A stretch of 52,973 nt of DNA from a virus (lineage: Duplodnaviria; Caudoviricetes). Position 1 is the stretch's first letter, and every line of letters starts with the position of its first letter. Below, piece by piece: positions 5,124 through 46,755 of the stretch. The position numbers and the translations under genes are program-made. The notes under the pieces are model-generated. The model was given only the letters and a program-made list of their open reading frames with translations. It did no database searches and was not told the DNA's origin. Location: the IMG/VR virus record IMGVR_UViG_3300044576_000027, positions 1 to 52,973 of that record; one strand, given 5' to 3'.

Positions 5124-5153
5124 TTTAATCCACAATAGCCAAAGGAGACTAAA

Positions 5154-6725: not shown

Positions 6726-7308
6726 TTTCTTTCTCCTCTGCTAATCTATCTAATACCTTGCAGATCTCGTCTTCATCCCATGCAATAGAATCTTGAATTT
6801 GTTTTCCATACCTATTGTCTATAAGCTCTTTAACATAAGTTTCTCTAGGTACATACTTGACAATACCAATCTTAACTAAATATCTCCATGTTTCTCTTTC
6901 TCCTAAAATATCAGGATAATACATTTTAATAATCTTTCTAAGAGATTTAGTATCGTCAGAGTAAGTAACCAATTTGTGCTTTTGTTGCTCTTCAATAAGT
7001 TTTTGTTGATATTTGATTAGTTGTTCTGTTTGTTCTTCGATAAGTATTAGAAGATTTGCTCTAAGATTATCATTAAACTTGGAAGCAAACAACAAAGCTG
7101 TAAATTTATTCATTACAATAGTTTTATAAGTATTACCTCTTTTTGTTGTAAAGTCACGCTCATCATATGAGAGGAGCGTAAGAATATCTCCTGAAAGGTT
7201 ATCAAGCATCTTATTAAAATCTCTTTTAACATTATCATGTCTTTTACCTGTTGCATCAGCAAACATCTTCAATGTGTATCCGTCTGTTATGGCTGTTAAA
7301 TTATCCAT
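6706..7308 (-). CDS. Rha-family phage regulatory protein
   Basis: FADATGKRHDNVKRDF N-terminal Rha motif; C-terminal domain related to the paralogs. Confidence 0.75.
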   Translation of the reverse strand: MDNLTAITDGYTLKMFADATGKRHDNVKRDFNKMLDNLSGDILTLLSYDERDFTTKRGNTYKTIVMNKFTALLFASKFNDNLRANLLILIEEQTEQLIKYQQKLIEEQQKHKLVTYSDDTKSLRKIIKMYYPDILGERETWRYLVKIGIVKYVPRETYVKELIDNRYGKQIQDSIAWDEDEICKVLDRLAEEKENETKYI

Positions 7309-7336
7309 TTAGTCTCCTATTAGTTTATTTTGAAGC

Positions 7337-7391
7337 AAAAACTTCAATATGCATAAAGAATCGCCAAAAACTTTATACATATTGAAACTCT
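7337..7391 (-). ncRNA. leader hairpin with UUUUUGGCGAUU loop
   Basis: Stem TTCAATATGTATAAAG/CTTTATGCATATTGAA; loop matches those at 8343-8416 and 39022-39099. Confidence 0.55.
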
Positions 7392-7453
7392 TGTTGTTGC
7401 TTTATTCTCGGTGGTTCTTGAATAGATATTAACAGAACCATCGAATAAAAAAA

Positions 7454-8257
7454 CTATAATCCAATTTGCTCTTTATAATATTTAACTTTATCTTCCAGTT
7501 TCTTGATAAAGTCTAATGTTACAGTCACTTCTGGACATCCAGCTTCTTTATATGCATCAATAGCTTTTGCTACAGCTTCAGGTTTAAAATGAGGATTTCC
7601 ATACTTTCTCTCTGCATAACCAATAAAGCCATCTAAGCTTTCAGGAACATCTCTTTTTATTGTTACTTTTGGAGATGTCTCCAAGTATCCATACCATTGA
7701 AGAATATCATTAATGTCTTGTACAGTAAACTCTGTAACGTTTAATAACGTTTTAATGTTTGTAACAGATGTTGAACCATCATGAGCAAATCTCATACCAT
7801 TTTGTTTTAATCTTTCAATCTCAGATTCAAGTTCAGCGATCTTGTCAAGATATTTTGACTCCATCTCAATATACTCTTTTGCTAAAGCTTTATTAAGTTC
7901 CTCTTTCTTTTGAAGCTCAATCTCTTTCTCTTTTACAATTTGTTCCTTAATGAACTTATCACAAGCAATAGCAAAATACTCATTACAATATCTAGCAAAC
8001 GATATAACCAAATCTGGATGGATATAAGTACCCTGTGGTTTTCCCTTTCCAACAACAGTATATTTAAGGTCACTCATATTGAGGGAGCTAAGTTTTGCAA
8101 TTTTTTCTGCATATTCCTTTTCATTTCTCCAATAGTTATCCATACGCTTACCATACTTCTTAGCAACATCAGTCGCGTTAAGCCATAAGCCTTTCGAAAT
8201 AGCAAAAGATACATTCGTATCAAGCAGTGTTGTGTTAGTGAATTTTTGTAATTCCAT
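7454..8257 (-). CDS. KilA-N domain protein
   Basis: WLNATDVAKKYGK...QGTYIHPDLVISFARY KilA-N signature. Confidence 0.85.
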   Translation of the reverse strand: MELQKFTNTTLLDTNVSFAISKGLWLNATDVAKKYGKRMDNYWRNEKEYAEKIAKLSSLNMSDLKYTVVGKGKPQGTYIHPDLVISFARYCNEYFAIACDKFIKEQIVKEKEIELQKKEELNKALAKEYIEMESKYLDKIAELESEIERLKQNGMRFAHDGSTSVTNIKTLLNVTEFTVQDINDILQWYGYLETSPKVTIKRDVPESLDGFIGYAERKYGNPHFKPEAVAKAIDAYKEAGCPEVTVTLDFIKKLEDKVKYYKEQIGL

Positions 8258-8318: not shown

Positions 8319-8416
8319 GTGAGAGATTGGCGATTTCTCACTTAAACAACTTCAATATACCTATTTAGCAGAGAAATCGCCAAAAAACCTCTAAATAGGC
8401 ATACTGAAATTGTTTA
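8319..8416 (-). ncRNA. two-hairpin leader with loop-loop complementarity
   Basis: ~26-bp stem with G-U pairs; loop TTGGCGATTTCTC complementary to GAGAAATCGCCAA in the downstream GTGAGA/TCTCAC hairpin. Confidence 0.65.
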
Positions 8417-8417
8417 C

Positions 8418-8456
8418 ATAATTATACTCTATTGTTGATTCATTCTCATTGGTTCT
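8418..8456 (-). promoter_or_regulatory. cassette promoter repeat (GAACCA...TATAAT)
   Basis: 39 nt, one mismatch to 9575-9613; -10 box at 8421-8426. Confidence 0.7.
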
Positions 8457-8499
8457 TGAAGAATATTGATAGAACCATCGAGAATAGATTAAAACTTGG

Positions 8500-9455: not shown

Positions 9456-9572
9456 GTGAAGATGTCGTCCAAAACACTTCACTTCGACATTTAAGTCAAC
9501 TCAGAGTTACCCATACTTTAAGTGTGAGGAGAAAATCTCCTCGAAGTGTCTTGGACGACTCTCAATTGACTT
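9456..9572 (-). ncRNA. two-hairpin leader with loop-loop complementarity (sequence-divergent)
   Basis: GTCGTCCAAGACACTTC in the first structure pairs with GAAGTGTTTTGGACGAC in the GTGAAG/CTTCAC hairpin. Confidence 0.6.
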
Positions 9573-9574
9573 TT

Positions 9575-9613
9575 ATAATTATACTCTATTGTTGCTTCAT
9601 TCTCATTGGTTCT
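9575..9613 (-). promoter_or_regulatory. cassette promoter repeat (GAACCA...TATAAT)
   Basis: Near-identical to 8418-8456. Confidence 0.7.
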
Positions 9614-9623
9614 GGAAAAGATA

Positions 9624-13033: not shown

Positions 13034-13079
13034 TATGTATCCTTTAATAAAAATTGGTTTAGGTAAATATATTTATTAC

Positions 13080-13094
13080 CTAGATAAATTACAC
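13080..13094 (-). promoter_or_regulatory. putative phage-RNAP promoter (variant GTGTAATTTATCTAG)
   Basis: Two mismatches to consensus; upstream of the lipoprotein gene. Confidence 0.5.
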
Positions 13095-13304
13095 CATTAC
13101 TGGCACGGAAATTGGCTTTTTAGAGGTTAAAATTGTTGTAGTGTAGGTTTGTATTGGAATTGATGTAAAAATGGTTATTTGGTATGTGTATGACATCTGT
13201 GTGGTTGGTATTTTGAAATGTCTATTGATTTGTGGTTGTTGAATGCTTCTGGTTCCCACAACTGTGGGATTTGGAGAGGTTAACAGAATTTAACAGGTGT
13301 TAAT

Positions 13305-13351
13305 TGATTAAAAAATAAGCAGTTTTTTGATTAAAAAATAAGCAGTTTTTT
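13305..13351. repeat. tandem direct repeat TGATTAAAAAATAAGCAGTTTTT x2
   Basis: Seen directly. Confidence 0.85.
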
Positions 13352-13622
13352 GAACCACAGATGTTCTATTTTTTCATCAAGTTGTTCATATATACTAGAT
13401 TAATCTATACAGGTAACAATGCTTGTTTTATGGGCTTTAGAGAGGTAGAAAGTTAACGTTTGAAGCAACTTTCTATTTGATAAGTTAATGAATTCGTTAA
13501 CTTTCTAAGAAATTTTTAAGAACCACAAGGTGTTATATATATATTAATATATTATATATAAGGGATTAAATTTACCTAAAAATGCTTATTGATACCGAGA
13601 TTGTTGGATTTAAACGTGTTTT

Positions 13623-13713
13623 TTTACGAACAAGATTCTGTTTCTAAATGGGTAGTTACGAACAAGATATTGTTTCTAGAGTAGTGTTTACGAACAAGAT
13701 TCTGTTTCTAAAT
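13623..13713. repeat. three iteron-like repeats TTACGAACAAGATTCTGTTTCTA
   Basis: Copies at about 13623, 13656 (variant) and 13688, 32-33-bp period. Confidence 0.8.
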
Positions 13714-13792
13714 TTACAATGATGTTGACTTTATGAAGACCTTTGTGATAGGATGAAGTTGCAATAATAATAAAATCACAAAGGATAACTGA

Positions 13793-14263
13793 ATGAAGAC
13801 AGACAACAATGTATCTGAAATGGAGTATAACGTATTTCCACTTAAACAAAAGAAGAATCGAGGAGCAACAAAAGTGTATCTAACATTGAAAGACAAAGTC
13901 GAAATAATGAAAGAATGTGGTGATGCATCACTTATACTGTTTGATTTTTATTTGACAAAAACATCATATATGAATGGAACAGAGAAAGGTTATGACTATA
14001 TGGATGATGCTAAAACTGCTAAATCACTTGGTTGGAGCAAATTTAAAGTCAGAGACAATAGACAGAAACTCATGAAGAATAATTGGATGAAAATTGTCAA
14101 AGGACGTTATAACAATGGTAAGAAAATCATTAAGACATTTCTTGGTAAAGAGGTCGTTGAGAAAGAATTAAGCTTTGAAAGCAATACTCCAATCAGAGAA
14201 GAAGAAGTAAGTAGCAAAGTCAAAACATTTGCATCAATGTTTCCAAGCATGCAAACTAAATAA
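13793..14263 (+). CDS. winged-helix DNA-binding protein (possible replication initiator)
   Basis: DAKTAKSLGWSKFKVRDNRQKLMKNNWM HTH-wing pattern; AAGGA SD; downstream of the repeats. Confidence 0.55.
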   Translation: MKTDNNVSEMEYNVFPLKQKKNRGATKVYLTLKDKVEIMKECGDASLILFDFYLTKTSYMNGTEKGYDYMDDAKTAKSLGWSKFKVRDNRQKLMKNNWMKIVKGRYNNGKKIIKTFLGKEVVEKELSFESNTPIREEEVSSKVKTFASMFPSMQTK

Positions 14264-14600
14264 CAACAGAACCACATCATATAACAAAACTCCTCACCTT
14301 TTAAAGGAAGCTGGTGCGAACATGAAGAGGAATTATTTGTTCCATATTCTTGACGAAGCTCTGCGTTAGCAGAGTGCCGTTTAGCGAACGAAGTGAGTAG
14401 GCATCAAGAATCTGGAAAAATAACTTCTGATGAAGTGTTTCAGCACCAAAGCTGACGTTTAAGATTTTTGCAGATAGCACAACTAAAAACCTCGTAGAGC
14501 CGTCGGAGACATAACATATTTATAGAACCATTAGGTGTTAACTTCATCTGTGTGGTTCTATGAAGTTCATATAAATTTGCATTTTTTTATCAAAAAACCC

Positions 14601-14628
14601 TTGACAAATGTATCAAAAATGTTATAAT
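14601..14628 (+). promoter_or_regulatory. consensus sigma70 promoter
   Basis: TTGACA-N16-TATAAT with a TG extension. Confidence 0.75.
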
Positions 14629-14831
14629 TGACTAGTCAATTGACAAGGACGTATGTCCCAATTGTCAACTAGTCAAAATTTAAAATATTGAATATAAGAT
14701 TCTTTTTATGAGCTACCAACTCAAACTCTTGAACACATAGTTTATCTGTGTAGTTCATAAAAGGAATCAATGAGAGTTTAGAAGTTGGTAGCTCTATAAC
14801 TCCATTAAATTATATTCCTAAGAAAAATTAA

Positions 14832-15071
14832 TTGTTAGATATAATTGAGTTCTCTAAATACGAGAAAACAGTCATTGTTATAGCTCATACAATATATTAT
14901 TCAGGTAAAGGAGTTGTACCTGAAGTTGATTTTCAATGGTCAAATCATCTTGGTTGCAGACTCCATTTACACAAAGATATACTAAAGACGAAGACAAACT
15001 GTTATCTTGAAGTTGAAAAGCTTAGAGGCTATAAAGGTGATGATGTTATTGAACATTGGATGAGAGATTAG
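14832..15071 (+). CDS. hypothetical protein
   Basis: 79-aa ORF with a TTG start and weak RBS. Confidence 0.35.
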   Translation: MLDIIEFSKYEKTVIVIAHTIYYSGKGVVPEVDFQWSNHLGCRLHLHKDILKTKTNCYLEVEKLRGYKGDDVIEHWMRD

Positions 15072-15194
15072 AACAAATACTAAGTTGATACACTCTCTTT
15101 CATCAGTGGTTCTAAGATTATGTTTCCCTTATAAACCTATTGACTTATGTGTTATGTGCAATAGAGAAAAAATAATAAGTATAATCCAAAAGGA

Positions 15195-15404
15195 CTATAC
15201 TTTTATAAAGGTTAATACTCCACTACGAGTATCTAACTTCTCATATACAGTATTACTAGCTACATGTAATAGTTTGCCATTTGCATTTGTAAAACCTGAT
15301 TTCATCATTAATGCCCAAGCTTCTCTTTTATTTTTTGTATTCGTAGAGATGATGCTAGCTTTACCTGCAATTGTTTGTAATGTTTGTAATTTAATTGTTT
15401 TCAT
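15195..15404 (-). CDS. early hypothetical protein
   Basis: AAAGGA SD; preceded by the promoter repeat. Confidence 0.7.
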   Translation of the reverse strand: MKTIKLQTLQTIAGKASIISTNTKNKREAWALMMKSGFTNANGKLLHVASNTVYEKLDTRSGVLTFIKV

Positions 15405-15428
15405 AATAAGTCCTTTAAATTTAATTTG

Positions 15429-15443
15429 CTAAATAGATTACAC
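15429..15443 (-). promoter_or_regulatory. putative phage-RNAP promoter GTGTAATCTATTTAG
   Basis: Exact copy. Confidence 0.6.
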
Positions 15444-15452
15444 TAATATTTT

Positions 15453-15491
15453 GAAAAAAATAAAATACCAACTATCTAATGACAGTTGGTA
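15453..15491 (-). terminator. intrinsic terminator
   Basis: TACCAACTG/TAGTTGGTA stem plus T tract on the minus strand. Confidence 0.55.
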
Positions 15492-15574
15492 GGAATGACA
15501 TAAATCCGTAGAAGAATTGTACAGAATAGTAAGCAAGTACAGTAGTAAAAAACAGTATGTATAATTGTTTTCAT
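15476..15574 (-). CDS. 32-aa hydrophobic early peptide
   Basis: ATG 15574 with AAAGGA SD directly after the promoter repeat; below the ORF-track cutoff. Confidence 0.5.
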   Translation of the reverse strand: MKTIIHTVFYYCTCLLFCTILLRIYVIPTNCH

Positions 15575-15599
15575 AGCTAATCCTTTATAATATTTTTAT

Positions 15600-15614
15600 C
15601 TAAATAGATTACAC
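15600..15614 (-). promoter_or_regulatory. putative phage-RNAP promoter GTGTAATCTATTTAG
   Basis: Exact copy. Confidence 0.6.
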
Positions 15615-15686
15615 TAATGCTCTGAATTGTCTTATCAGATGGTTCTGTTAACTGTGTGTATTGTAAAAAAGAATTACCAACAAGTC

Positions 15687-15956
15687 TTATGACTTGTTAG
15701 CTTTTAACTCTTTTAGCTCACGTTTAAGCTTTTCAAGTTCAATATCTGTTTCAAGAGCATCAATCTCAAAATCTTTTTGAACAGATTTCTTAAACTCTTC
15801 AGTATATACTTTTGCAACTGATGTTAAATCTCTAGTAATGTCGATAACGTCATTGGCTAAGTTTAGAGCATTTCTTGCTGTATCAAATACTTCAATAGTT
15901 GTATTTACTACTTCAGTAGTTAGCTTTCTTCTTGGTCGTCTAGTTGTTGTTTGCAT
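15687..15956 (-). CDS. early coiled-coil protein
   Basis: AAAGGA SD; preceded by the promoter repeat. Confidence 0.7.
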   Translation of the reverse strand: MQTTTRRPRRKLTTEVVNTTIEVFDTARNALNLANDVIDITRDLTSVAKVYTEEFKKSVQKDFEIDALETDIELEKLKRELKELKANKS

Positions 15957-15987
15957 AGTATGTCCTTTATATTTTTATTTGCTTATG

Positions 15988-16002
15988 CTACATAGATTAC
16001 AC
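15988..16002 (-). promoter_or_regulatory. putative phage-RNAP promoter (GTGTAATCTATGTAG)
   Basis: One mismatch to consensus. Confidence 0.55.
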
Positions 16003-16226
16003 TCATGTTGGTAGTCTGTAGAGTTATGGACTTGTCTATGTATTAGCATGATTGCTGTGTGTTATCTGCATGGTTCTGTAGTTGTAGAGGATTAGATGTA
16101 TGGCTTGTTTAGAACCACAGGTATAGTTAGGTATAGGGGGGGTATTTTTTGGTTTTATAAATCGAGTTTTTTGGATAAGGGGGTCGAAATATTTCTAGTA
16201 GGTTGGGCTGAAAAGTGGGTGAACTA

Positions 16227-16357
16227 CCATAATAATATATATGAATACAAGAATATATATGAACCTCCATAATAGTATATACCTACCACAAGAATATATA
16301 CATCCACAATAATATATATTGAACCACAATAATATATTGAAACACAATAATATATAT
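16227..16357. repeat. about seven degenerate tandem repeats, consensus CCACAATAATATATAT
   Basis: Seen directly, ~18-21-nt period. Confidence 0.75.
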
Positions 16358-16448
16358 CGTAAGAATGATTACTGCAAGAAACAAATAGGTCAAGTTGTTT
16401 AACACTTTAATATTTAAACACTCAACCTACACTGATGTTATGGTTGAA

Positions 16449-18130: not shown

Positions 18131-18155
18131 TTTTTCTCCTATTTGATACTTTTTA

Positions 18156-35025: not shown

Positions 35026-35071
35026 CTGTTGTATAATTTTACTAACAATTAACAAACAGGAGACTAAACAA

Positions 35072-36804: not shown

Positions 36805-38103
36805 ATGCCAACTACACCAATTCAATTTAACACTGGATATACAACATCAGATATGGGACCTCAAATTACCCAATATGATATGCAAAGAATTGCCGTTCAA
36901 GAGGCTAAAAAGAACATTCGTTTTTCACAAATGGGTATGTTACAAAAGATTAAACCGAACCATGGTGATGAGTTAAAAAGATACAGAGAGTATCCAATTT
37001 TACATGACAGCAACGTAAACAACCAAGGTTTAGACGCACAAGGTGCTGAACTACTTGCAAATAAGTGGTATGCCTATAAGGCTGATGGTTCACGAACAGT
37101 ACATATTGATGAAGCTTCTGCAAGAGCTGTACTGGGAGTAGTTAAAGTGCTCAAAGGTGGTGGAGCTTTATATGCTGGTTCACGAGATTTTGCACTTCAA
37201 AATGACAACTTTCCTTTAATTGGTGAAATCGGTGGTCGTGGAAATAGAGTAGGTTTAACTCGTGAAATTCTTACAGCAAAAGTCAAAAAGTATGCAATTA
37301 ACATTGAATACACAGCAGATGCATTAAAGTTTGATTCTCAACCAAAACTAAACATCAAATATGCACGTGAAATTGGTAGAGCTTATTCAGAGCTAAGAGA
37401 AGCAATTGTACGTAACCAATTGATTACTGAGGGTCTTGTTAATGCTGCTTATGGTGGTTCTGCTACAACTGTTATTGAAGTAGATGAAACTTCTGGTATT
37501 ACATACCCATCATTGAGACGTATGCAAACTTCACTTGACTTAGCTAGATGTCCTTATGACACAAAGGTAATCAGTGGTTCAAAAAATATTGATACAGTTA
37601 CAGTTTCTGCATCACGATACGTTTACATTCCAATTGAACTTGAATCTGAAATCGAAGATTTAACTCATAATGGTAGAGCAATGTATTCTGATTGGGCTTC
37701 TTATGCTGCTGCTGGTGGAACATCTTACGCACAAGGTGAAATCGGTAAAGCTGGTAAATTTAGATTCATCTCTGACTTTGACTTCCCAATTATGAAGGGT
37801 GCAGGAGCAGATGCTACTAATGGTCTAGACGCGAATGCAAATGGAATTGAAGATGCTGGAGAAGGCAAATCAATTACAAATGGTCATTATGACGTTGCAC
37901 CATTACTATTCGTAGGTAGTGAATCGTTTGAAGTTATTACAACTGAAAAAGATGGATTTGTGCTTAATGAGTCTGCTCCTAAAGTAACTCCAGGTGTTGA
38001 CAACTATGCTGACTTAGGTGTTGTATCTGTTAAGTGGCACCAAGGACTCATGGTGAACAAGGCAGAACACATCCGTTGTTTACTCGTTAGCTTCAACAAA
38101 TAA
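36805..38103 (+). CDS. major capsid protein (N4 gp56 family)
   Basis: GEIGGRGNRVGLTR, KVISGSKNIDT, GEIGKAGKFRFI, YDVAPLLFVG; strongly biased codon usage. Confidence 0.9.
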   Translation: MPTTPIQFNTGYTTSDMGPQITQYDMQRIAVQEAKKNIRFSQMGMLQKIKPNHGDELKRYREYPILHDSNVNNQGLDAQGAELLANKWYAYKADGSRTVHIDEASARAVLGVVKVLKGGGALYAGSRDFALQNDNFPLIGEIGGRGNRVGLTREILTAKVKKYAINIEYTADALKFDSQPKLNIKYAREIGRAYSELREAIVRNQLITEGLVNAAYGGSATTVIEVDETSGITYPSLRRMQTSLDLARCPYDTKVISGSKNIDTVTVSASRYVYIPIELESEIEDLTHNGRAMYSDWASYAAAGGTSYAQGEIGKAGKFRFISDFDFPIMKGAGADATNGLDANANGIEDAGEGKSITNGHYDVAPLLFVGSESFEVITTEKDGFVLNESAPKVTPGVDNYADLGVVSVKWHQGLMVNKAEHIRCLLVSFNK

Positions 38104-38107
38104 TTCT

Positions 38108-38130
38108 AAACCCCTAAATATAGGGGTTTT
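38108..38130 (+). terminator. intrinsic terminator after the MCP
   Basis: AAACCCCTA-AATA-TAGGGGTTTT. Confidence 0.75.
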
Positions 38131-38222
38131 AATCTACTATCAAACATCAAATCATAAAAAATTACAGAATATAAGTCGATTCAAAATGAAATCATGGTAC
38201 AATTCATTACAAAAACAACATC

Positions 38223-38287
38223 TTAGAGGTTACCAAGCCAGACTTCTGGTTACTTCTGCGTCTCTCTGACAACGAGGTAACCTCTAA
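38223..38287 (+). ncRNA. leader stem-loop before the Rha gene
   Basis: TTAGAGGTTACC/GGTAACCTCTAA perfect 12-bp stem with an internal AGCCAG/CTGGTT hairpin; TGGTACAAT -10 at 38195. Confidence 0.5.
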
Positions 38288-38288
38288 A

Positions 38289-38945
38289 TTGAAAGAGGTT
38301 GCAGATAAATATGGAAAGCAAAACAAGAATCTTTTGCGAGATTTTAACAACATGGTTGCAGAATTGTCAGAGAAAAATTTTAACCAGCTCAGATTTGAGC
38401 CTGTTAAATATATTGACAAGAAAAACGAAGAAAGACCAACAGTGATGGTAGATTTTAAGACTCTTGTTTGGTTTGTAACCAAATTTGATCACAACCTCAG
38501 ATTAAAAGTTATTAATGAAGCTTTTGCTAAGCTAGAACAACAAAAAGAACAAGAAAAACTTGAAGCTGTAAAACAAGCTAAACTTCCAAAAGTATATGAC
38601 AATGGATATACTTCTGTTCGTGGTGCAATTAGTTCTCATTTTGAAGACATAAAAGATGATGTAAATGAAAGTGATGTTTGGGATGCTCTAGTCAGTCAAG
38701 AAGTAGTTGTAACAAGAGCAAAGGTAACAATTAAACGTGAACTGTCTGAATCATTTGATGGATTAGCTGGAACAGCAAAACATAATATGGCTGTATTTGA
38801 TCCACAATTAGTTAGAAACTGTTATGAAAAATGGATTGAAGCTGGTAAACCTATTAAATCAGAGTATGAAAGATTAATAGAAGAGTTTGAACAAATATCT
38901 GAGTACTACAAGGAAAAGATTGAGGAAGCTAAGAAAAAATTATAA
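38289..38945 (+). CDS. Rha-family regulator, N-terminally truncated (TTG start)
   Basis: LKEVADKYGK; C-terminus KPIKSEYERL..EFEQIS.YYKEKIEEAK shared with 8679-9410; no in-frame ATG upstream. Confidence 0.65.
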   Translation: MKEVADKYGKQNKNLLRDFNNMVAELSEKNFNQLRFEPVKYIDKKNEERPTVMVDFKTLVWFVTKFDHNLRLKVINEAFAKLEQQKEQEKLEAVKQAKLPKVYDNGYTSVRGAISSHFEDIKDDVNESDVWDALVSQEVVVTRAKVTIKRELSESFDGLAGTAKHNMAVFDPQLVRNCYEKWIEAGKPIKSEYERLIEEFEQISEYYKEKIEEAKKKL

Positions 38946-38956
38946 CTACCTCTCCA

Positions 38957-38993
38957 TCATTGGTTCTCATAATATCTAGAACCACAAAGATAA
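38957..38993 (+). repeat. cassette boundary direct repeat with inverted TGGTTC-N12-GAACCA
   Basis: 37 nt, two mismatches to 39907-39943. Confidence 0.8.
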
Positions 38994-39021
38994 GATTAAA
39001 CTACAATAAGGTATAATTCAT

Positions 39022-39122
39022 TTAAACAACTTTTATATGCTCAGTTATGAAGTTTTTGGCGAGGCTTTCTGCATGGCTGAGTATATGAAAGTTGTTTAAG
39101 TGAAAGCCTTGCCATCTTTCAC
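39022..39122 (+). ncRNA. two-hairpin leader with loop-loop complementarity
   Basis: Long stem; loop TGGCGAGGCTTTC pairs with GAAAGCCTTGCCA in the GTGAAAG/CTTTCAC hairpin; homologous to 8319-8416. Confidence 0.65.
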
Positions 39123-39180
39123 ACAAAAATAATCAACTTAAAATTTTAAAATCTTATTTGCTATAAATATAAGGATTATT

Positions 39181-39895
39181 ATGCAAAGCGATATTATCAA
39201 ATTAGATAACAATGGTGCTGCTTATGCAGTTGTAAAAGATATAGCTGAGTATTGTGAGGTAGATGTTAAAGCTACAAGACAATTGGTTTTAAATCATATT
39301 GATGAGTTCAATGATGTTACAAATAAGTTGCAAAATAAAATTGGTGGCATTTCAAATGGTGCTTCCAAAGATTCGTTTAAGGTTCCAGAATTGAAACTAA
39401 TTAAAAAAAGAGGAACATCAAGAGATGAAGTTGATTGGTCAAAAACAAAACTTTATCAACCTCACATAGAATTGTTGCTTATGATGATGAAAAAATACAA
39501 AGATAGTTAGAAGTCATAAAGTTGACGTTATTGTCGATCTATTTGCCTCAAAATTTGAACTAATACAAACAAAACTTGAAAATCAAAAACTACTAATTGA
39601 AAAACAAAATACTGAGTTAGTTTTACTTGAAAATAAAGTTAATCAACTTGAAACTGATAAATTTTATGATTGGGAAGAAGAGTACTCATCTGTATCAAGA
39701 TTTATCAAAGAAAATAAACTAAAGATTACATCTACTGAATTACTTGATAAACTTGAAGAAGCTAAGCAAATTGAAACTAAGCAAATTACTAGGATGGTTA
39801 GATTTTTAACAGAAGAATCTGATGGTAGAGTTTCAAAGAAAGGTACATTGTTGTTTAAGAATAGTTTACTCAAAAAATTATCTGACACTATCTAA
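39181..39895 (+). pseudogene. Rha-like regulator interrupted by a +1 frameshift in an A6 run
   Basis: Removing one A at 39490-39495 gives LLLMMMKNTKIVRSHK... and an open frame to TAA 39893-39895. Confidence 0.7.
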
Positions 39896-39906
39896 CTCAT
39901 TTTTAA

Positions 39907-39943
39907 TCATTGGTTCTCAAAATATCGAGAACCACAAAGATAA
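39907..39943 (+). repeat. cassette boundary direct repeat; TGCTATAAT promoter follows
   Basis: Copy of 38957-38993. Confidence 0.8.
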
Positions 39944-39983
39944 AACAAACTATGCTATAATAATATCAATCAAGGAGTAACAG

Positions 39984-40346
39984 ATGATAAATCCGGATAA
40001 AGAAGAAGGTTTACTTGAAGCAAGAAATTTAACTGCTGTAAAAAATATGAGTATTATGGAAAACTTAGTTGAACATTGGCATTTGGGTCCTAAAGTTGCT
40101 TATGATAATCAACAAAAAAATGATGAGTTTTGGGAGTCATTAGCTAAGGTAATGTTTGTAACTGTAGATGAAGCAAGGAGATACAGTTGTGCTAGTTGTA
40201 AATATGGAAACATTAGACCTGAATTTTTAAAAGAAATGGAACATATTCCATATAATGATCTAGACAAAGATGGTGGAATTAGAGTTTGGTGTGATAAATT
40301 TGATTTTATTTGTCATACTACTAGAGTTTGTCAAGCATATATCTAA
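39984..40346 (+). CDS. Cys-rich metal-binding hypothetical protein
   Basis: CASC...WCDKFDFICHTTRVC; AAGGAG SD. Confidence 0.7.
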   Translation: MINPDKEEGLLEARNLTAVKNMSIMENLVEHWHLGPKVAYDNQQKNDEFWESLAKVMFVTVDEARRYSCASCKYGNIRPEFLKEMEHIPYNDLDKDGGIRVWCDKFDFICHTTRVCQAYI

Positions 40347-40370
40347 GTTTTTGTTTTGTATAATAAATAT

Positions 40371-40461
40371 GTTACTGCTATCAATTTTTATTTCTCCTAT
40401 AAAAGTTTAGTCTCCTATAAGCAAAAAAAGATTTAGTTTTCATTGTATTGGTGGCAGTAAC
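40371..40461 (+). ncRNA. candidate sRNA with a double anti-Shine-Dalgarno loop
   Basis: TATAAT at 40359-40364; 15-bp terminal stem with G-U pairs; TCTCCTATAA twice in the loop. Confidence 0.55.
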
Positions 40462-40522
40462 GCCTTATTTCAAAAAAAATATGATAAAATATATAAAAAT
40501 AAAAACACTTTGGAGACAAAAT

Positions 40523-41137
40523 ATGGAAAACACAGATTTCAAATCAGAAGCACAACTTAGAGTTATGAATGAAGAAAAGCTAGTTGAATTACTAGAAAAA
40601 GACTTTGGTATTTCAACTCTTCCAACGCAACTTAAGAACGATAAGAAAAAAATGAGAGAAGTTTATTTAAAGTTGATTGACAATGGAGGAGATGATTCAT
40701 TTATTTACGATATTTATGATACAACTTTGAAAGAAGCACCTAAAGCAAATATCAACAAAAAAGAAACACTTGCTCAAAAGCGAAAACGATTAAAAAAAGA
40801 ATTGTTTGTTTTGTTTAATGTAACAATCCATGATAATAATCCAACTGAAACACTTGAAAACGACGAGCATGTTAGAGTTAGATTTGTATCTTGGGGTAAT
40901 GATGTTGTTGGTCACTATACAACAAAAGTTATTATGGATCATCCAGTATTTGTACATGAGGGAGCTTTGAGAAACTTAAGAGCAGTAACGTATAGAAAAA
41001 CTTCAACTAAAAAAGGTGAATCTGGTATTAGATATTCAAAGCCTCTTCCACGCTATACAATTACATACAACGAGGTAACACAAGAGTTTATTGACAATCT
41101 TGCTAAAAAACAAGCACTAGAAGAAATTAATGATTAA
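40523..41137 (+). CDS. N4 gp55-like virion protein
   Basis: Synteny; VTIHDNNP...VSWGNDVVG...LDNLAKKQ-like ending; ATG 40523 with GGAG SD. Confidence 0.6.
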   Translation: MENTDFKSEAQLRVMNEEKLVELLEKDFGISTLPTQLKNDKKKMREVYLKLIDNGGDDSFIYDIYDTTLKEAPKANINKKETLAQKRKRLKKELFVLFNVTIHDNNPTETLENDEHVRVRFVSWGNDVVGHYTTKVIMDHPVFVHEGALRNLRAVTYRKTSTKKGESGIRYSKPLPRYTITYNEVTQEFIDNLAKKQALEEIND

Positions 41138-41150
41138 TATGGAGTAATTT

Positions 41151-42377
41151 ATGCCTATAGTAACAAATCACTCAAATTCTGAAACGGATGTAACCATCAC
41201 TGGTGGTTCTGTTGTTGTTGATTCAACCTTTATAAATGATGTATTGACGCAGATAAAAAACTTAAAAAATGATGTACAACAGCTTAATACAGGAACTGAT
41301 TACAAGGAGATATATAACGACTCAACACTTGATAACGGTGGAATAGTTGGTGATTTGTTACATCTAATGAGAGTCCATATTAATGACTCGATAAGAAAAG
41401 GCGAGTTATCTAAAGATATGTCTGGTCAAGCTTATGTCGCAGCAATATCTGAAGCTGTACAAGCCTCAATACAGATATATACAGTTAAATCTGATTCAAG
41501 ATTTAAGTATTTAGAAAACAAACTTAAGCTATTTGATTCACTCATTGGTTCTTATACAAATCTTATGTCTATGAACCAGACAGAGATAGATGCTAAAATA
41601 AAAGAGTTTACGTTAAAAGAGCTTATGCCACTTGATAGGGAACTTAAAAAAGAAGATATTGAGTATAAACATAAGAGCCATTCTCTTCTTGATGAACAGA
41701 TTATAACTGAGCAAAAAAGACATGCTCAACAAGATGTTGATAAAAATATAGCATCGTACAATCTTTCAGATATGCTACCAACCGAAAAACTTCTAAAGGT
41801 TGAGCAAAAAAACGATCTTATAAAACGTGCAGCATTAACTCAAAAAGAGATAGATTTAAAGTCTTACGAATTGACGAATATTTATCCACAAAAACTACTT
41901 GAATCTACAGCAGTTAGACAGTTAAAAGAGAAGCAACTTGATTTTGAATCATATAAATTCACCAATATGCTACCATTGGAGAAAATTAAACTAACACATG
42001 AAGTTGCATTGTCTGATGCACAGGCATTATTGATGGGTGTAGAAAAAGATATAAAATTATATTATAAGACAGATATTCAACCAGAAGAGAAAAAACTTGC
42101 ACAGTCAAAAGCAAGAATTGAATCTATTAATGCAGCTCTTGGTGGAAATGTTATAGACTCGTTACCAGCAAAAAGAATGGCAGTCATTGATAAGCAATTA
42201 TTGGTTTATGATAAACAAATAGCACACTATGCAGATCAGAAAGATTTAGATCTATTAAAAATGATGACATCATATCAATCAATGATTTATCCAGACTTAA
42301 CTGGTACTAGCCAAGCTATATTTTCATTTGCAAATAGCACAAATGCATCTACTGTATTTAGTAGATTGAATAACTAA
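41151..42377 (+). CDS. N4 gp54-like structural protein
   Basis: GGIVGDLLHLMRVHI...KGEL pattern, coiled-coil repeats, synteny. Confidence 0.55.
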   Translation: MPIVTNHSNSETDVTITGGSVVVDSTFINDVLTQIKNLKNDVQQLNTGTDYKEIYNDSTLDNGGIVGDLLHLMRVHINDSIRKGELSKDMSGQAYVAAISEAVQASIQIYTVKSDSRFKYLENKLKLFDSLIGSYTNLMSMNQTEIDAKIKEFTLKELMPLDRELKKEDIEYKHKSHSLLDEQIITEQKRHAQQDVDKNIASYNLSDMLPTEKLLKVEQKNDLIKRAALTQKEIDLKSYELTNIYPQKLLESTAVRQLKEKQLDFESYKFTNMLPLEKIKLTHEVALSDAQALLMGVEKDIKLYYKTDIQPEEKKLAQSKARIESINAALGGNVIDSLPAKRMAVIDKQLLVYDKQIAHYADQKDLDLLKMMTSYQSMIYPDLTGTSQAIFSFANSTNASTVFSRLNN

Positions 42378-46659: not shown

Positions 46660-46755
46660 AAAATAACTATTCTCCGAACCACAAGGAGAATAGAATTACT
46701 CAAATAAATCAAAAAATGTTATAATTGTTAAAAACAAATATCAAGGAATATAAAT

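Follow-up and report, generated by a model that had tools for sequence, protein, structure and literature searches.

What is the function, if any, of the short element that lies between a Cys-rich open reading frame (ORF) and a gp55-like structural gene in this phage? The element combines a promoter-like box, a long stem and two C/U-rich loop words able to pair with ribosome-binding sites (RBSs). It could be the folded 5' leader of the gene behind it, a trans-acting small RNA (sRNA), a relic or DNA-level binding site, or the 3' end of the gene in front of it. A structured 5' leader of the gp55-like operon is our preferred reading; we ranked it first and consider it more likely than a small regulatory RNA, and we hold it tentatively, at somewhat less than an even chance.

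The whole stretch of DNA that was analysed (the window) is a virus record of 52,973 bases with a G+C content of ~30% and an estimated completeness of 61%. By sequence comparison, the whole window is a distant N4-like phage. The capsid protein (36805-38103) matched phrog_1357 and gave 477 matches among phage records, the best at 32-34% identity and nearly all of them from N4-like phages; no relative of this protein was found in viral contigs. From 35072 to the end, gene order paralleled the LUZ7 structural block: gp57-like, capsid, gp55-like, gp54-, gp53- and gp52-like, and virion RNA polymerase. The gp55-like structural gene (40523-41137, + strand, 204 aa; phrog_2130; synteny with LUZ7) is the first gene of the gp55-to-virion-RNA-polymerase block. 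Its product aligned weakly to the LUZ7 'N4 gp55-like protein' (26% identity, 118 aa, E 1e-5), and protein relatives were seen at 53-63% identity (P0002-P0007).

The gap between the capsid and gp55-like genes is 59 nt in LUZ7 versus 2.4 kb here. This accessory block (38104-40522) has its own promoter-like boxes and holds a Rha-domain gene (38289-38945), a possibly split gene from 39181 onward, a Cys-rich ORF of 120 aa (39984-40346, + strand) with its own TGCTATAAT box at 39953-39961, and finally, at the right edge, the element. The Cys-rich ORF matched no family in Pfam or PHROG. The region from 39181 consists of a 109-aa ORF (39181-39510) followed by a long open frame at ~39578-39895, which is in a different reading frame and has a coiled-coil/Ant-C-like look; Pfam gave no match above threshold for either piece. 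Read by eye, 39181-39895 may be one gene split by a frameshift or stop. Directly 3' of the capsid gene is a hairpin followed by a T-run (38108-38129), which the terminator scan listed on the - strand and whose + form was read by eye. If this hairpin terminates transcription, the gp55-like block would need a promoter of its own.

The element opens with the promoter-like box TGTATAAT (40357-40364, + strand), which contains TATAAT at 40359-40364. A closing stem of 15 pairs begins at the predicted +1, with its 5' arm at 40371-40385 and its 3' arm at 40447-40461; on the + strand, two of the pairs are G-U, which become A.C mismatches when the - strand is read. The upstream stop codon is 25 nt before the stem, which encloses 61 nt and ends 61 nt 5' of the gp55-like ATG. 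Within it, hairpin 1 (40386-40404) has a 6-bp A-U stem with the loop TTCTCCT (40392-40398) and is present in both the minimum-energy and the centroid fold. Hairpin 2 (40405-40422) has a 5-bp stem with the loop GTCTCCTA (40410-40417) and carries a 14-nt word complementary to four RBS regions. The 10-nt word TCTCCTATAA occurs at 40393 and 40411, its sole two copies in the window. Three nucleotides past the stem is a T-rich tail, TTATTT (40465-40470), a weak terminator at best. A second promoter-like box, TGATAAAAT (40482-40490), lies 32 nt 5' of the ATG at 40523, and the gp55-like RBS, GGAGAC, is at 40512-40517. The sequence-only reading that drew attention to this locus had described the -10 box, the stem of 15 bp including two G-U pairs, the doubled 10-nt word and six RBS matches of 10-13 nt, and the letters and coordinates it gave proved exact.

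The + strand local fold had a predicted energy of -22.9 kcal/mol, compared with -11.96 +/- 2.55 for shuffled sequences (z -4.29), and none of 200 shuffles was as good. The - strand fold was poorer (z -2.70; 3/200 shuffles as good). Predicted unpaired probabilities were 0.94-1.00 for the hairpin 1 loop and 0.83-1.00 for the hairpin 2 loop, and the seed flanks outside the loops were mostly paired (predicted unpaired probability 0.13-0.28). The fold was unchanged when a 175-nt leader that extends into the gene was folded, and the gp55 RBS stayed open in it. A proposed pairing in cis with the gp55-like RBS was not borne out: it amounts to only 6 bp (GUCUCC/GGAGAC) and is absent from the 175-nt leader fold, which is blind to loop-to-downstream contacts. 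On these grounds, cis sequestration of the gp55 RBS was rejected. Small ORFs were also rejected: a 13-codon + strand frame (ATG 40369) and a 20-codon - strand ATG frame both lack an RBS by eye, and a 13-codon - strand TTG frame, again by eye, is too short and has no gene behind it.

Considered one by one, the parts of the element do not stand out in the whole window. Uninterrupted + strand stems of at least 15 bp, with at most 3 G-U pairs and a span of at most 160, numbered 2, and 12 block shuffles gave 1.4 on average, which is chance level in the window. In 100 shuffled windows, direct repeats of 10 nt spaced 10-40 nt apart occurred ~4.8 times each on average. Neither the stem nor the 10-nt repeat, taken alone, exceeds chance at window level.

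Promoter-like boxes were examined across the window. The patterns TGTATAAT and TGnTATAAT together gave 23 matches on both strands, of which 9 were intergenic, an enrichment given that intergenic sequence makes up 4,594 of the 52,973 bases (8.7% of the window); one of the nine (15558) lies within a possible 32-codon - strand ORF. Six boxes were placed 22-38 nt before an RBS-bearing start codon (5116, 18156, 18169 on the - strand, 35030, 39953 and 46717), and for this reason the type is probably a real promoter class. Such a box class agrees with the host-type late promoters described for N4-like phages (PMC9163698). The 40357 box stands 158 nt from the next ATG, compared with 22-38 nt elsewhere. 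The pattern of the 40482-40490 box, TG.TA.AAT, is a less specific motif, with 27 + strand matches, 6 of them intergenic. A simple sigma-70 scan listed neither the 40357 nor the 40482 box because a -35 is missing; the 40357 box has none that is usable at 16-18 nt. In line with the earlier proposal, a promoter at the 40357 box is plausible in silico, and the + strand fold (z -4.29) begins at its predicted +1.

On the 3' side, the terminator scan listed nothing in the element, and the 61-nt enclosed loop does not fit the pattern of an intrinsic terminator, which is a G+C-rich hairpin with a 3-8-nt loop and a direct T-run. A 3' end defined by an intrinsic terminator, which is a feature of sRNAs, was thus not found here.

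Complementarity to RBS regions was the feature that had suggested a regulator in trans. Exact complementarity was found to 7308-7320 (13 nt), 1773-1784 (12 nt), 35058-35069 (12 nt) and 5143-5153 (11 nt), and further to 2136-2145 and 18133-18142 (10 nt each). For statistics, the loop region 40386-40446 was compared with 54 gene starts (-25 to +3), a list drawn up by hand from ORFs of at least 70 aa, with small ORFs left out. Exact matches of at least 9, 10, 11, 12 and 13 nt were found to 6, 6, 4, 3 and 1 genes, respectively. In 5000 shuffles that kept the TCTCC cores fixed, P was 0.0042 at both 10 and 11 nt, 0.0012 at 12 nt and 0.05 at 13 nt. The window contains 103 TCTCC contexts, 13 of which were dropped as antisense of listed gene starts; among the 90 others, the second seed fell in the top 1-2%.

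When 61-nt windows were slid along both strands with self-antisense excluded, the element ranked first of 21,166, with 8, 4 and 3 genes at 10, 11 and 12 nt, and the runner-up was the antisense of the 7308 RBS. For comparison, 300 sequences of 53 kb were generated with an order-3 Markov model and the best window of each was scored: none reached 8 genes at 10 nt, 13.7% reached 4 at 11 nt, and 3.7% reached 3 at 12 nt. After this look-everywhere correction, the excess of RBS complementarity is modest (P 0.14 to <0.003, depending on word length). Duplex energies, computed with accessibility ignored, reached -16 kcal/mol or better for 9 of the 54 starts; the mean was 4.1 when the sequence was fully shuffled (P 0.065) and 9.7 when the cores were kept (P 0.6; 200 shuffles each). 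The comparison with shuffled controls proposed earlier was therefore split: exact matches exceed those of core-keeping shuffles, but duplex energies do not.

The complementarity signal rests mostly on one 10-nt word common to four RBS regions. GGAGACTAA has five copies on both strands together; four are at gene starts (5154, 35072, 1771 and 7308), and the fifth is the antisense of the element. Among 24 GGAG-bearing starts, 10-mer sharing was seen in 8 pairs against a mean of 5.6 under a column-permutation null (P 0.18), and the four AGGAGACTAA RBS regions were for this reason rejected as proof of a common regulator. For TCTCCTAT, 5 of the 7 + strand matches are real RBS regions on their own strand. 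Parts of the element other than the seeds also match other places in the window exactly over 12-14 nt.

Relatives of the element were sought in several ways. Searching the phage collection with blastn gave no DNA match, and the gp55-like protein and its alignment A1 gave no relative in viral, metagenome and genome contigs. Relatives of the 120-aa upstream gene were found at three viral loci (66-77% identity). These loci contained neither a stem arm nor a loop word and were not significantly similar to 40347-40522, and the three stretches gave no match to five other proteins of the window. The element was absent in 3/3 loci, and its membership in a cassette with the 120-aa gene was rejected. 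The doubled 10-nt word was found at 26 loci in viral contigs, none of which resembled the element; the same scan turned up iteron-like GTCTCCTATAAGAC-type arrays in unrelated, higher-G+C viral contigs (L006, L009, L014, L015, L018, L019, L020 and L027). An Rfam scan of 39000-42000 with E up to 10 returned 7 weak matches, the best at E 0.068, all far below gathering scores and none to C4. ARAGORN listed 0 tRNA or tmRNA genes in the whole window.

In the folded-leader reading, a + strand RNA would be transcribed from the TGTATAAT box with a start at about G40371. The closing stem would form at once and leave no free 5' end, and by analogy with known leaders such a 5'-terminal helix would shield the mRNA from 5'-end-dependent decay. 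Transcription would read through into the gp55-like gene, the putative head of a late structural operon, while the two small hairpins inside the stem would present UCUCCU words in their loops. Read-through is likely because the stem encloses 61 nt, the tail is only TTATTT and the site is unlisted by the terminator scan. In the predicted fold, the G-U pairs on the + strand and the poorer - strand fold are points in favor of a + strand leader RNA.

The same layout recurs in the phage. A box at 14620 is followed by a 19-bp stem (14698-14768) and an ORF at 14832, and a box at ~39007 is followed by a hairpin (39017-39104) and an ATG at 39181; in these recurrent leaders a long hairpin comes soon past the -10 box, 60-76 nt before the gene. 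Related hairpins precede the - strand genes 8257 and 7308. Because other leaders share the layout and the stem ends 61 nt before the gene, the folded leader is the ordinary reading of the element.

Other regulatory-looking features were observed elsewhere in the phage. An upstream module is repeated before five genes (39181, 39984, 8257, 7308 and 9482; alignment A2) at 38946-39015, 39896-39961, 8417-8460 (-), 7394-7460 (-) and 9560-9623 (-). It consists, in order, of a GGTTCT...AGAACCA palindrome, a conserved A-rich stretch and (A)GTATAAT, and it has the look of a promoter/operator class that is specific to the phage and linked with Rha, KilA-N and Ant-like genes. Just past this module lie three long leader hairpins (39017-39104 on the + strand, 8343-8416 and 7336-7393 on the - strand) with arms of 23-36 nt; their loops are similar (TTTTTGGCGA-like) but the sequences of their stems are not, a pattern suggestive of a hairpin family conserved as RNA or as DNA.

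The region 13034-16448 is mostly non-coding (3.4 kb) and is a possible origin or early control region. It contains a 27-nt tandem repeat (13304/13327), three TTACGAACAAGAT... units (13624, 13656 and 13688) and a perfect TTGACA-17-TGTTATAAT promoter at ~14600-14628, after which come a palindrome and the 19-bp stem. Before the virion RNA polymerase gene, an intergenic hairpin (46667-46693) pairs CTATTCTCC with GGAGAATAG, an RBS-like word with its complement.

Several observations weigh against the folded leader. The 40482-40490 box, 32 nt before the ATG and so at the usual distance, would make the upstream box unnecessary for gp55; the upstream box would then drive a unit with no ORF, a better fit to a separate sRNA. 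The upstream box lacks a -35 and escapes the sigma-70 scan, chance alone would give about one stem this long on each strand of a window, and a pure stabiliser leaves the two anti-Shine-Dalgarno (anti-SD) loops and the best RBS-complementary window unexplained. A trans-acting sRNA, either discrete or processed from the leader, is a rival reading: its loop words would block translation by pairing at the RBS regions of the Rha-like gene at 7308 and the genes at 1771, 35072 and 5154, and more weakly those at 2132 and 18130. Such an sRNA is favored by the first rank among windows for exact RBS complementarity, by the excess over core-keeping shuffles (P 0.001-0.004 at 10-12 nt) and over other TCTCC contexts, by the rarity of 8 genes at 10 nt (0/300 random sequences) and of 3 genes at 12 nt, and by TCTCC cores that are predicted to sit open in loops (unpaired probability of at least 0.83). 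The remaining GGAGACTAA copies all being RBS regions, the unusual distance of the box from the ATG, and the second box at the usual distance also agree with it. The A/U-rich single strand past the stem could be a cleavage site that frees a stem-closed RNA, and a report on the N4-like phage LUZ7 describes putative late intergenic sRNAs (PMC9163698).

We nevertheless judge the sRNA unlikely. Its duplex energies do not exceed those of core-keeping shuffles, 4 genes at 11 nt are reached in 14% of random sequences, the signal comes mostly from one 10-nt word whose sharing has a P of 0.18, the seed flanks past the loops are paired, a canonical terminator is lacking, other parts of the element match by chance over 12-14 nt, and Rfam families, the C4 model included, are unmatched. 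Of the earlier proposal of a phage-encoded repressor acting in trans, what stands is the presence of anti-SD words in predicted open loops and the top exact-match window; a discrete transcript of ~90 nt is unsupported, since as many as 61 nt lie inside the stem and its tail does not pass the terminator scan. Less probable again is the more specific proposal of a stem-closed sRNA, made from a host-type promoter, whose loops mimic an anti-SD and silence the phage's own genes with AGGAGACTAA-type RBSs, including the Rha/Ant-like regulator. If true, the phage would have, in RNA form, an equivalent of the proteins with which phages repress translation, and this RNA would set the time at which accessory and replication-block genes are shut off.

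The possibility we place next after the folded leader is that the element has no function as an RNA. It may be a relic at the edge of an insertion, made up of a duplicated, inverted RBS word and a chance inverted repeat, or a protein-binding site at the DNA level with direct repeats 18 bp apart. All other GGAGACTAA copies, and 5 of the 7 + strand TCTCCTAT matches, are RBS regions on their own strand, and because other copies are real RBS regions, the simplest origin of the word is an RBS-like word in reverse. The block may be decaying, since the neighboring gene at 39181 appears by eye to be split; stem and repeat, taken singly, do not exceed window-level chance, and the element is missing downstream of the upstream gene's relatives at all three viral loci. 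Against this reading, no start codon is suitably spaced from the first RBS-like word on the - strand, and behind the second there is only a frame of 13 codons. Further points against it are that the two imperfect stem pairs are both G-U on the + strand, that the first base of the stem coincides exactly with the predicted +1 of a box type enriched between genes, and that the local fold has a z of -4.29. We regard the 3' end of the upstream gene as a very doubtful explanation: a large leaky terminator or 3' UTR structure would close the 39984-40346 transcript before the gp55 promoter. The stem does begin shortly past the stop codon and is followed by TTATTT, and leaky terminators are common in N4-like LUZ7 (PMC9163698). 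Yet the site is unlisted by the terminator scan and has a 61-nt enclosed loop, a promoter-like box separates the stop codon from the stem, and homologues of the 120-aa gene elsewhere lack such a structure.

RNA regulators of lytic phages are poorly known, and those reported for N4-like phages are only putative sRNAs, from LUZ7 (PMC9163698). The putative LUZ7 sRNAs are late, small, non-coding and intergenic, with host-type late promoters (PMC9163698). They lie between orf69 and orf70, unlike the element, which is at the capsid/gp55 junction. If a phage RNA represses several of the phage's own genes at their RBSs, timing in the N4-like family would be controlled at a new level. If the element is only a folded leader, it would be unremarkable, since this phage has several 5' hairpins.

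Among better-characterized systems, sRNAs with anti-SD loops include H. pylori RepG, C. jejuni CJnc190 and the C-rich loops of the S. aureus RNAIII type. Like these, the element has C/U-rich words in hairpin loops that are able to pair with G-rich RBS regions of several mRNAs. Those sRNAs, however, are shown transcripts with terminators and tested targets, whereas the element is known from its sequence and has a weak tail; its words are UCUCCU in an A/U-rich frame, and its target enrichment is borderline. The c4 antisense RNA of phages P1 and P7 is a leader-encoded phage RNA in which two short loop words pair with an RBS region, and its target system is an antirepressor. The element likewise has two loop words and a putative leader position, and its best match is the Rha/Ant-like gene at 7308. 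In contrast to c4, which has its target downstream on the same transcript, the element's match in cis to the gp55 RBS is only 6 bp, and the element has no match to the Rfam C4 model at E up to 10. We filed the element under neither c4 nor the anti-SD sRNAs because it fails both the c4 model and the feature of a discrete transcript with a terminator. The 5'-terminal stem-loops that stabilize mRNAs, such as the leaders of E. coli ompA and B. subtilis aprE and ermC, correspond to the folded-leader reading. As in these leaders, a stable helix stands at or within ~2 nt of the 5' end, here a predicted one, of a long leader; those stabilisers are simple hairpins, whereas the stem of the element encloses two anti-SD loops.
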